19,782 nt of DNA from a virus (lineage: Duplodnaviria; Heunggongvirae; Uroviricota; Caudoviricetes): IMG/VR virus record IMGVR_UViG_2711768053_000018, positions 1 through 19,782 of that record; one strand, given 5' to 3'. Positions 893 through 18,230 of this stretch are shown here, piece after piece (position 1 is the stretch's first letter; every line of letters begins with the position of its first letter). The position numbers were made by a program, and so were the translations under genes. The notes beneath the pieces are model-generated. The model was not told where the DNA came from and ran no database searches. It saw only the letters and a list, made by a program, of their open reading frames with translations.

Positions 893-968
<76 letters not shown>

Positions 969-2755: not shown

Positions 2756-3028
2756 TTCTCAATCTCTCGATGGCGCAGTGCAGCAGATGCCAGTTGTTCA
2801 GGCTGACGTATAAAGTATAAATAAACTGATTCCAGTGTAAAGCCCCCACATTGATGGAATAAAAACCAAACAACAAATTGCTGGGATAAAAACAACGCTT
2901 ATTATTAAAAGCGGTTAAACAAATTAAATTTTAATGTTATGCAAATCTGCCAGATCACCATAATATCTCATTTGAAAACCGCTGAAATAACAACCCTATC
3001 AGGATTAATCATATTAAGGTGAGTAAAT

Positions 3029-3115
3029 ATGGAAAACAACAAATCTGCACATTACGTTCCTTTTTTATCTGTAATACTTTTTGTTTTATGCTGTGCGTGG
3101 GCATTATTTTTATAA
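3029..3115 (+). CDS. 28-aa hydrophobic small protein candidate (MENNKSAHYVPFLSVILFVLCCAWALFL)
   Basis: ATG at 3029 preceded by AAGGTGAG with 5-nt spacing; polar N-terminus then about 19 hydrophobic residues; followed by a hairpin at 3137-3152. Below the 60-aa track cutoff. Confidence 0.3.
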   Translation: MENNKSAHYVPFLSVILFVLCCAWALFL

Positions 3116-3135
3116 AAATATTCACAGATAAAATA

Positions 3136-3153
3136 TACCCGCCGAAGCGGGTT
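3136..3153. terminator. Bidirectional terminator candidate between the convergent small ORF and the ATPase/TOPRIM cassette
   Basis: Stem ACCCGC/GCGGGT with loop CGAA (3137-3152), T-rich on the plus side and A/T-rich on the minus side. A second hairpin GCCTGAT/ATCAGGC lies at 3175-3197. Confidence 0.35.
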
Positions 3154-3218
3154 TAGTGCGGGTGCGTTGAGGATGCCTGATAAAGCTTACATCAGGCCGA
3201 TTTCACTGATTTCAGACC

Positions 3219-3752
3219 TTATTCCACCAAGCGGAAATGCCTAGCAAAATTTGACTTCATATCCGCAACAGGCTTTAACGCATCGTGTAGCCCCCGGGAA
3301 AACCACAGATGCTCTCGAATCCCCAGCTTAATTAATTTACCCAGCGAATCATTACATGCTATAAAATCCCTTTTAAAATCATTAATTCCGGATGTTTTCC
3401 TTCCGCAAAAACAATAAATCAACTGAGGAATGGATTTATTGCAGCACCAGCTCAATTCTTCTTCAAAATTACTTGTTTGCTGAAACAAATATATCCGATG
3501 CCCTCTGGAACGTAAAAATTTCACGTTTTCTATAAATCTTGCCGATTGCTCAACCTGATCTGAATCAAACACAACAAATATATCACTACCCTTTGGTATT
3601 GCCATCGCATACCTATGTATCCGATCCTGCCAGAAATTCTTCTTAACAACATCCTTCACAGCAATAATCTTATCTCTCTTCATTTTTTTGAACAGAGATA
3701 ATTCTGTTTCACCTTCAACGAAAACGATTGTAACTGTTGCTCTTGCTGCCAT
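3219..3752 (-). CDS. Small TOPRIM-like (OLD-type) nuclease-domain protein, partner of the upstream ATPase
   Basis: 177 aa. N-terminal IVFVEGETE (conserved Glu of TOPRIM strand 1) and VVFDSD (DxD motif). Start ATG lies 1 nt after the ATPase stop (TAAaATG). AT-rich by eye. Confidence 0.6.
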   Translation of the reverse strand: MAARATVTIVFVEGETELSLFKKMKRDKIIAVKDVVKKNFWQDRIHRYAMAIPKGSDIFVVFDSDQVEQSARFIENVKFLRSRGHRIYLFQQTSNFEEELSWCCNKSIPQLIYCFCGRKTSGINDFKRDFIACNDSLGKLIKLGIREHLWFSRGLHDALKPVADMKSNFARHFRLVE

Positions 3753-3753
3753 T

Positions 3754-4950
3754 TTAAAGCAACTCCGAAACTAAAGACATATCAGGCATAACGCCAAAGA
3801 TATCCCGTGCAACTGCACTTCGTATACTCCTGTCGTTTTTTTTCAGGAGTGAGCCTGCTTCAATGAACTCAGTGCAATCATTATCCTTTTTGAGAAAAAT
3901 GAACGAATGAACAGGCAAGTCAAGCTCAAAAATATCCATATTATGTGTGGTGTAGAAAAACTGAGTGTTTTCCTTAAGCCTAGAAATAATCAGCGTAACG
4001 ATTATCCGCTCCAGTTCTGAATGAGAGTAGGCTAACTTCTCATCAAGGTAATAGGTCATTGACGGAATGTTGGAGCACACACCAAGTTCTTCACAATCAG
4101 AGATTATCGCACTGACAAAATGAGCTATTGTGACAGCATCGAAGGTGCCCCGTGACATACGATCTGAGTTCGTTATGTCGCCTTTACTTGTTACGATTGA
4201 ATAATCCTTGTTTTTAAACCTTATCAAATAAACCTTGGTGGGATTTTTGCCTTCCGACTCAGGTTCAGTCATCTCAACGACGCCAACAATACTTGAATCA
4301 AAAGTGCGAATTATTCTTTCAAGAATATCTTTATTCATTCTTGAAATTTCAGCTGTACTTTCTTGAATCCCTGACAACTGGTAATACCACCCCCCCGAAA
4401 AAATAACGCTCTTGAAGGGTTCGAGAGTAACAGTATTACCATCAGAATAACTCTCATGAAAATAATATTCAGCAGAGGTTGGAGCCCCCGCAGAAAATAG
4501 TTTGTTTAGCTTTTCTGTTGTTTTAAAACAGGAGTCATTTATGTTTATTTTCACATAACCATATTTCACTTCTTTAACAAAAAGTGCACCTGTTTCATTT
4601 GCAGCAAAGCGAACATACAACCTGTGATGCAAGAAGTTCTCTGTCGCAAAATCCACTTCAAAGGAGGCATCCTGATCCCTGTGGTTAAGTCGCAGACTGG
4701 AGCGCAGCTCTTTGGTTCTGATAAAAACCTGAATCCCACACAATATTCTGCCCAGAGAGGTTTTCCCGGAAGCGTTCCCTCCAGTAATGATACAGACTTT
4801 CTTATAATAAAATTTAGGTCTGCCCGCCAGATGCTCACCCTCAAGCGGTATATTCACCTGCTTCTTGGGGTATGAAAGATTCAGTTCTGCGTTGCAGAAT
4901 GCATACAGATTTACAAGTTTTATGCGCGTGAAAATCATTTTTTCTTCCAT
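3754..4950 (-). CDS. ABC-type (AAA_21-like) ATPase of a candidate defence module
   Basis: 398 aa. Walker A ITGGNASGKTSLGRIL, Walker B-like YYLDE, H-loop FFYTTHNMD. An alternative start at 4938 (MIFTRIK) has a better-spaced GGAAG. Upstream minus-strand promoter candidate TTGTTG-17-GATAAT (plus 5000-4995 / 4977-4972). AT-rich relative to neighbours by eye. Confidence 0.8.
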   Translation of the reverse strand: MEEKMIFTRIKLVNLYAFCNAELNLSYPKKQVNIPLEGEHLAGRPKFYYKKVCIITGGNASGKTSLGRILCGIQVFIRTKELRSSLRLNHRDQDASFEVDFATENFLHHRLYVRFAANETGALFVKEVKYGYVKININDSCFKTTEKLNKLFSAGAPTSAEYYFHESYSDGNTVTLEPFKSVIFSGGWYYQLSGIQESTAEISRMNKDILERIIRTFDSSIVGVVEMTEPESEGKNPTKVYLIRFKNKDYSIVTSKGDITNSDRMSRGTFDAVTIAHFVSAIISDCEELGVCSNIPSMTYYLDEKLAYSHSELERIIVTLIISRLKENTQFFYTTHNMDIFELDLPVHSFIFLKKDNDCTEFIEAGSLLKKNDRSIRSAVARDIFGVMPDMSLVSELL

Positions 4951-5043
4951 GTTTTGGAACTAATGTTGAGTATTATCCAGAAAATCAATAACGTCAACAA
5001 AATTTACCGGGGACTTACCCCCGATCCTGTTTGGCTCGGAAAT

Positions 5044-17839: not shown

Positions 17840-18049
17840 TTTATGACAAAAACTTTGAGATATGACGATGTTAAACCATGTCCGTTTTGTGGTTGTCCAT
17901 CAGTAACGGTGAAAGACATTTCAGGATATTACCGGGCAAAATGCAACGGATGCGAATCCCGAACTGGCTATGGTGGAAGTGAAAAAGAAGCGCTCGAAAG
18001 ATGGAATAAACGAACTACTGAAAATATTAATGGAGGCGTTCATGTATAA
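17840..18049 (+). CDS. ralR: Restriction alleviation protein RalR (Lar)
   Basis: Start at ATG 17840 (MTKTLRYDDVKPCPFCGCPS...); Cys-rich; matches Rac RalR from memory. Confidence 0.8.
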   Translation, partial: FMTKTLRYDDVKPCPFCGCPSVTVKDISGYYRAKCNGCESRTGYGGSEKEALERWNKRTTENINGGVHV

Positions 18050-18230
18050 AATTACCGCTACAATTGAAAAGGAAGGTGGCACTCCTACTAACTGGACAAG
18101 ATATTCAAAATCTAAACTAACGAAATCAGAATGCGAAAAAATGCTCTCAGGTAAAAAAGAAGCAGGCGTTTCCAGAGAGCAGAAAGTAAAACTGATAAAT
18201 TTTAATTGCGAGAAACTTCAGTCCTCGTGA
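18042..18230 (+). CDS. ydaC: YdaC-like protein
   Basis: ATG 18042 (MYKITATIEKEGG...) overlapping the ralR 3' end, with GGAGG 6 nt upstream. Confidence 0.6.
   Translation: MYKITATIEKEGGTPTNWTRYSKSKLTKSECEKMLSGKKEAGVSREQKVKLINFNCEKLQSS

Follow-up and report, generated by a model that had tools for sequence, protein, structure and literature searches.

AcrZ, MgtS, KdpF, and CydX are single-helix peptides of about 30 to 50 residues that long went unannotated and that bind larger membrane proteins; their genes are chromosomal and are usually cotranscribed or coregulated with the gene of the partner. In the type I toxins Ibs and ShoB, a head that is short and polar or charged precedes a hydrophobic segment reaching the end of the peptide. 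Among the optional genes inserted between conserved phage genes, known as morons, are bor and lom of lambda and gp15 of HK97, the last of which reportedly acts in superinfection exclusion. Here we compare with these systems a 28-codon open reading frame (ORF; here called the sORF) of an Escherichia coli prophage. The best overall explanation, to which we assign a probability of roughly 0.6, is that the sORF is a genuine, translated gene for a single-pass inner membrane peptide that forms a moron module of its own and is not part of the defense cassette beside it.

The window, i.e., the whole 19,782-nt stretch that was analyzed (IMG/VR virus record IMGVR_UViG_2711768053_000018), is a Rac/lambda-like E. 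coli prophage with its early-right operon on the minus strand. The sORF lies on the plus strand at positions 3029 to 3115, from an ATG at 3029 to a TAA at 3113 to 3115, and a Shine-Dalgarno (SD) sequence, AAGGTGAG, is located at 3016 to 3023, 5 nt upstream of the start codon. Its predicted product, MENNKSAHYVPFLSVILFVLCCAWALFL, has a polar head (residues 1 to 9) followed by an unbroken 19-residue hydrophobic stretch (residues 10 to 28; GRAVY, 2.62) that continues to the C terminus. A first-pass annotation of this DNA had placed a well-initiated 28-amino-acid ORF of membrane-peptide composition at 3029 to 3115, convergent with an ATPase/TOPRIM cassette. The coordinates, the ATG, and the SD all agree with the sequence, the polar head and the hydrophobic residues 10 to 28 are there, and both cassette genes are indeed on the minus strand. 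From this composition, we infer that the peptide would cross the inner membrane once. A lipoprotein signal was considered and rejected: Cys21 is invariant, but the residue at the −1 position is L, F, C, S, or G, so that most variants of the peptide have no lipobox.

Taken by itself, the sORF of the window is only marginally unusual compared to chance. In the 463-nt intergenic region that contains it, 15 ORFs reach 20 codons or more, and 4.7% of dinucleotide shuffles of that region yielded an ATG-initiated ORF that was 28 codons or longer and had an SD core. The case for a gene must therefore come from the comparison of related sequences. Copies were gathered by pattern scans of IMG/VR, and since the first pattern fixed codons 1 to 13, integrity was retested on samples that left the ORF unconstrained. 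The ORF was intact at exactly 28 codons in all 141 copies collected by the scans and in the 41 sORF-bearing copies of a sample anchored on the neighboring DUF1367 gene (41/41), and it was intact in 119 of 119 copies from a sample anchored solely on the conserved block upstream. Among the more than 180 copies, none proved to be disrupted, and no tandem or duplicated copies turned up. Among the 19 nucleotide haplotypes recovered, the sORF frame is the sole one of the six that is stop free in every haplotype, and the two overlapping ORFs of the window are broken or variable in length.

The changes among these haplotypes are those expected of a coding sequence under constraint. Because the selection test draws on 19 closely related ORF haplotypes, all from Escherichia or Shigella, it is of limited depth; within that depth, parsimony on a neighbor-joining tree gave 23 synonymous and 25 nonsynonymous changes, against a random expectation for the synonymous share of 0.20 to 0.27 (binomial P value = 1.6e-5 to 1.9e-3). 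By codon position, the changes numbered 8, 13, and 27, and pairwise pN/pS ratios between the main clades ranged from 0.12 to 0.49. The synonymous skew persists in codons 14 to 28, which are free of the constraint imposed by the search pattern (hand count of events). Replacements in the peptide are mostly of one hydrophobic residue for another (exchanges among V, I, A, L, F, and C), and 16 residues were invariant in the first 17 haplotypes (M1, E2, N3, N4, H8, P11, L13, S14, I16, L17, F18, C21, W24, A25, F27, and L28); the anchored samples contributed the further variants A7V and F12S. These patterns strongly indicate purifying selection on the peptide, with the polar head conserved as well, and we conclude that the peptide is presumably made.

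The same data bear on whether the sORF could be untranslated, or lack a function as a protein, and owe its conservation to a constraint on DNA or RNA such as a junction for mosaic recombination or a minus-strand RNA. The conservation profile is high at 2896 to 2944 and at 3014 to 3118 and low in the leader between them, and the adjacent block at 2896 to 2944 is at least as conserved as the sORF itself, which a constraint of this kind would accommodate, as it would the shortness of the ORF, its marginal significance in a single sequence, and its absence from the annotations inspected and from one large protein collection (see below). Against such a constraint stands the finding that changes in the sORF frame are enriched for synonymous and third-position ones. 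It also fits poorly with the state of the overlapping minus-strand ORF, which is broken in many copies and whose third positions, coinciding with the second positions of the sORF, vary less. Moreover, the exact length, the start, the SD (AAGGTG, AAAGTG, or AAGGTA across haplotypes), and the stop codon have all been kept while the flanks carry indels, and conservation is lost directly after the stop codon. We therefore consider a noncoding origin of the conservation to be quite improbable, and it is very likely, judging from comparative sequence data, that the sORF is a real, previously unannotated gene for a tiny membrane peptide of lambda-like prophages.

Searches for relatives of the peptide returned little beyond the sORF itself. 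The first-pass annotation had proposed a small-protein homology search as a check; sequence searches of Pfam, NCBIfam, PHROGs, PADLOC, and PDB with the peptide gave no credible match, and no family could be assigned from them. Exact look-up of the peptide and two of its variants found none of them in a collection of 15 billion proteins, and a pattern scan for distant homologues that excluded the known codon usage gave zero matches. With tblastn, the peptide matched only four E. coli phages and two chromosome-sized records filed under plasmids. The latter, NZ_CP141089.1 and NZ_OL790696.1, are about 4.8 to 4.9 Mb in length and look like chromosomes despite their place in a plasmid collection. 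Rfam searches at the gathering threshold and at E values of up to 10 yielded nothing above chance level around the sORF. The peptide was not found by full-text search or in the supplements of the small-gene paper on the Sakai strain (PMC5597208), and a literature search for a described lambdoid hotspot at this place turned up nothing specific. Because the peptide matches no family in the databases searched, its mode of action has to be read from its composition.

At the level of DNA, the locus is common. A 341-bp query around the sORF had megablast matches in 829 of 5,426 complete E. coli genomes, and a more sensitive blastn search with the 227-bp module (2894 to 3120) had matches in 1,177 of the 5,426, at 74 to 99% identity and with at least 80% query coverage in all but five (1,172 of 1,177); these genomes hold roughly 1,250 matching places in total. 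Natural carriers include E. coli W (NC_017664.1, at about 1512814 to 1513114) and ATCC 8739. In a scan of species-representative genomes, Shigella flexneri and Escherichia ruysiae were the sole matches. Nevertheless, the 94 records inspected (90 E. coli records listed and four phage records) had no annotated feature at the matching place. Two of the genomes carrying the prophage module as E. coli W does, NZ_CP026085.1 and NZ_CM135829.1, are 4.83 Mb in length and labeled DH5alpha, and they may therefore be mislabeled. The sORF is absent from Qin, DLP12, and Rac of K-12, so that small-protein screens in K-12 are unlikely to have seen it.

The sORF is part of a replaceable segment of about 330 bp (2806 to 3136; 29% GC), delimited by an alignment to E. 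coli strain 401651 that breaks after about position 2805 and resumes at 3137. To its left is the DUF1367 gene (2156 to 2755; Pfam E value = 8e-96; 50% GC), beyond which are genes annotated in homologous loci as DUF1364, Q-like DUF1133, and lysis genes. Two tRNA genes (818 to 889 and 896 to 968, minus strand; tRNA-Gly and tRNA-Thr in homologous loci) are located between the Q-like and lysis genes. In 38 of 102 loci, the left neighbor of the sORF is a different nin gene. When loci were instead selected for a DUF1367 protein with no less than 97% identity to that of the window, 41 of 65 carried the sORF and 24 carried other sequence in its place; those 24 have a gene for a 57-residue rem-like protein or an 83-residue gene in the slot, codirectional with the nin genes, and hok is retained upstream of it. 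In loci L006 (5686 to 5763; E. coli 401651), L146, and L164, the alternative is the 57-residue protein, whose N terminus resembles that of Rem of K-12 Qin; RefSeq has only a pseudogene fragment at the 401651 slot. In K-12 Qin, rem itself occupies the position of the sORF. hok also occurs without the sORF, and the sORF occurs without hok.

Across Escherichia and Shigella prophages, then, the module has a fixed slot between the 3′ end of hok/sok and the nin/Q genes, and it is oriented against the early-right operon. The presence or absence of the module in a fixed slot, its distinct base composition, and its orientation against the operon together identify it as a moron. These features are best read as those of an autonomous moron, whose expression in the lysogen could proceed regardless of phage development. 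Rac/lambda-like prophages have, between their replication and nin/Q genes, a hypervariable hotspot for cargo.

Since every gene neighboring the sORF upstream is encoded on the other strand, the sORF would need a promoter of its own. The most conserved noncoding block of the locus, free of indels, spans 2896 to 2944, and the homology of the most divergent copy (L104) starts at this block. It contains an AT tract, TAAACA at 2916 to 2921, a 16-nt spacer, and TGtTATGCA at 2935 to 2943, together with other overlapping, weak sigma-70-like candidates. No promoter site in the block reached the threshold of the scanner, and the strand layout and the conservation are what lead us to place the putative promoter of the sORF within 2896 to 2944. 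The candidate with the best position weight matrix score, TTGCTG-16-TATTAT, was discarded, as clade-specific insertions of 2 or 8 nt alter its spacing. No LexA box was seen by eye in the upstream block. An inverted repeat, ATGTTATG-N17-CATAAYAT, is present at 2934 to 2966 with its left arm inside the conserved block, and it may act as an operator or form an RNA hairpin at the 5′ end. The top sigma-70-like site of the region, TTTACA-16-TATACT (10/12 matches), reads on the minus strand from 2841 to 2814, inside the sORF module and directed toward the DUF1367 and nin/Q genes; almost all copies with the sORF have kept it, and loci with another segment in place of the module lack it.

The sORF leader (2945 to 3013) has kept its length while its sequence has diverged, about as fast as synonymous sites when judged by eye from the alignments. 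RNAalifold predicted a small 5′ hairpin in the leader and no conserved structure. Sequestration of the SD was also considered and rejected: the predicted fold of the window sequence pairs UCACC with the SD, but this pairing is not conserved, and shuffled leaders pair just as well. Within the upstream block, a 5-bp hairpin at 2896 to 2913 has variants that mostly retain pairing only as minus-strand RNA, by way of G-U pairs.

These features bear on whether the locus is a type I toxin-antitoxin system, in which an Ibs/ShoB-like, membrane-damaging toxin would be paired with a cis-antisense RNA of about 110 nt running on the minus strand from a promoter-like site at 3035 to 3008 to the hairpin at 2913 to 2896. 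The architecture of the peptide resembles that of Ibs and ShoB, being short, with a polar head and hydrophobic residues to the C terminus, and its gene is prophage cargo that sits beside hok/sok in 58% of loci, in a window that also contains RalR/RalA. The latter pair, at the other end of the prophage, is indicated by a match to the RalA antitoxin small RNA at 18048 to 18226 on the minus strand (Rfam, 218 bits). The minus-strand promoter-like site overlaps the start codon, and in one clade (26 copies) the hairpin variants pair only on the minus strand, via G-U pairs; however, two singleton hairpin variants favor the plus strand, the L104 copy has no U tract after the hairpin, and three promoter-like sites were found where shuffles lead one to expect 2.5. 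Furthermore, the SD is strong and its pairing probability, 0.75, falls within the range of shuffled-leader controls (0.62 to 0.78; 40 leader haplotypes), the leader has neither a conserved structure nor a slower rate of change than synonymous sites, Rfam has no match at the locus, and none of the more than 180 copies is disrupted or tandemly repeated. The composition of type I toxins that the first-pass annotation had noted is thus borne out insofar as the product is a small hydrophobic membrane peptide, but the leader that occludes the SD, the conserved leader structure, and the RNA family that would go with such a toxin were not found. On this balance of evidence, we regard a type I locus as unlikely.

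Each of the three types of sequence found downstream of the sORF has a hairpin after the ORF. In the window, it is part of an orphaned 3′ end of a hok mRNA on the minus strand (3137 to 3180), which comprises a terminator hairpin at 3137 to 3152 and the fold-back element, fbi, at 3153 to 3180. This remnant aligns with the 3′ end of the Qin hokD gene of K-12 at 97.7% identity, and pairing of its fbi element to the 5′ end of a hok sequence is calculated at −44.8 kcal/mol. By itself, the 44-bp remnant matches many phage records. The terminator hairpin was scored on the minus strand only; on the plus strand it is followed by just three U residues, and it is weak as a terminator for the sORF in the window. 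It had been proposed that the ORF and the cassette share a terminator; a hairpin does lie between them, but it belongs to the minus-strand 3′ end of hok. The remnant is nonetheless likely to be the physical 3′ limit of the sORF transcript. In other loci, the neighbor is complete: a convergent hok is found about 110 nt past the sORF stop codon in 76 of 132 loci (58%), and E. coli W has an intact hok/sok at the corresponding place (Rfam sok match, 112.8 bits).

A hairpin after a short ORF, along with an Rfam match to Phe_leader at 3048 to 3157 (23.9 bits; E value = 0.12), might recall the leader peptide of a transcription attenuator. The match is far under the 55-bit gathering threshold of that family, though, the peptide has no tandem run of Phe residues, and no codirectional gene follows downstream in the window or in other contexts, which leaves an attenuator scarcely credible.

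The relation of the sORF to the adjacent cassette was the remaining proposal of the first-pass annotation, which had put both in one AT-rich insertion and suggested that the ORF may belong to the ATPase/TOPRIM module. The cassette is a minus-strand pair of genes (3219 to 3752 and 3754 to 4950) comprising an AbiL-like ATPase and an RloB-like partner; PADLOC gave matches to AbiLi (8e-23) and AbiLii (8e-4), and the Pfam match to RloB is weak. Adjacency, convergent orientation, a hairpin in between, and the AT richness of both segments would all suit a third component of the cassette, for instance, a membrane effector or sensor. Base composition nevertheless separates the two, as the 29% GC sORF module and the 39% GC cassette are split by the hok remnant, which is 64% GC, and a single insertion does not describe this arrangement. 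The cassette junction is at 3180/3181, and the match to other genomes stops at 3180. From the hok 3′ end left at this junction, we conclude that the AbiL-like cassette replaced the body of a hok locus, of which the last ~44 nt remain.

Occurrence across genomes separates them further. The cassette (3181 to 5000) is present in 1 of the 5,426 complete E. coli genomes, that of strain 401651, at 99.7% identity. That strain has the identical cassette junction and 44-bp remnant but no sORF; in the interval from the remnant to DUF1367, it has unrelated sequence with a gene for a rem-like protein. The sORF is likewise missing from six contigs of IMG/VR that have a related two-gene cassette (72%/63% identity), located elsewhere in the prophage, after rusA and a 185-residue ORF. 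Conversely, the cassette is missing from more than 1,100 loci that carry the sORF, compared to seven cassette loci that lack the sORF. The downstream side of the sORF is highly variable, with at least 30 unrelated cargo sets in 101 loci, including an S8 peptidase with an FtsH-like ATPase, large NTPases, transposases, and convergent hok. The ORF is thus not conserved where the cassette is, either in 401651 or in the six contigs, and it occurs mostly without the cassette, so that the proposed membership in the cassette does not hold. The comparative data clearly indicate that the sORF is independent of the AbiL-like ATPase/RloB-like cassette, and a role as its third component is very improbable. 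Adjacency to a defense cassette does not by itself make a gene a component of it.

Given an independent module of this kind, a plausible course of events can be proposed. The sORF would be transcribed from a promoter in 2896 to 2944, constitutively or in the lysogen, and the peptide would insert as one helix into the inner membrane of the lysogen. There, it might bind and modulate a membrane protein, which could be a host transporter or sensor or the route by which phage DNA enters. The AbiL-like cassette is a separate and much rarer cargo that took the place of the neighboring hok gene body. Our best guess from the sequence data is that the peptide is more likely a modulator of a membrane protein than a tightly repressed killer toxin. 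A more specific proposal, possible but doubtful, is that the peptide is a new prophage effector, either a very small superinfection exclusion or abortive infection factor or a new type I toxin whose cis-antisense antitoxin would run from the region of the start codon to the hairpin at 2913 to 2896.

About 22% of complete E. coli genomes, from pathogens and commensals, carry the sORF, and it is missing from all annotations inspected. It marks the fixed edge of a highly variable cargo and defense hotspot and could therefore guide the mining of this hotspot. Should the peptide exclude phages, modulate a host membrane protein, or be a toxin, it would be a very small addition to the known factors of lysogenic conversion.

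Compared to the type I toxins of the Ibs/Sib and ShoB/OhsC loci, the sORF is alike in its size, its polar or charged head, and its hydrophobic end, and it is also unannotated, intergenic, and near other type I loci. It differs from them in having no sequence similarity, no detected antitoxin RNA, no occluded SD, no conserved leader, and no tandem copies. With hok/sok, its commonest neighbor, it has an intergenic hairpin in common in 58% of loci, and the products of both would be small membrane peptides carried as prophage cargo; the sORF, however, has no Hok/Gef match in Pfam or NCBIfam, is on the opposite strand, and lies outside the hok mRNA. The rem gene of K-12 Qin and the rem-like genes are found in the slot of the sORF, flanked by the 3′ end of hok and nin/Q, but rem encodes 83 residues, is not hydrophobic, is codirectional with the nin genes, and has no sequence relation to the sORF.

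The closest parallels in layout and in product are of two other kinds. Like AcrZ, MgtS, KdpF, and CydX, the sORF product would be a single-helix peptide missed by annotation, and action through a larger membrane protein, as in their case, is the mode that we consider the most likely, although no partner is evident for it. Like the phage morons lambda bor and lom and HK97 gp15, the sORF is an optional gene inserted between conserved phage genes, with a GC content lower than that of its neighbors (29% versus 50%) and with its presence or absence polymorphic among close prophages; from its orientation and layout, it should be expressed independently of the phage operon, and its product is predicted to be located in the membrane. 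It is far smaller than those morons, at 28 residues and one helix, and its promoter and terminator are putative. The sORF is, in sum, a new, unannotated representative of the small membrane proteins and of the phage morons, a kind of gene that is itself already known.
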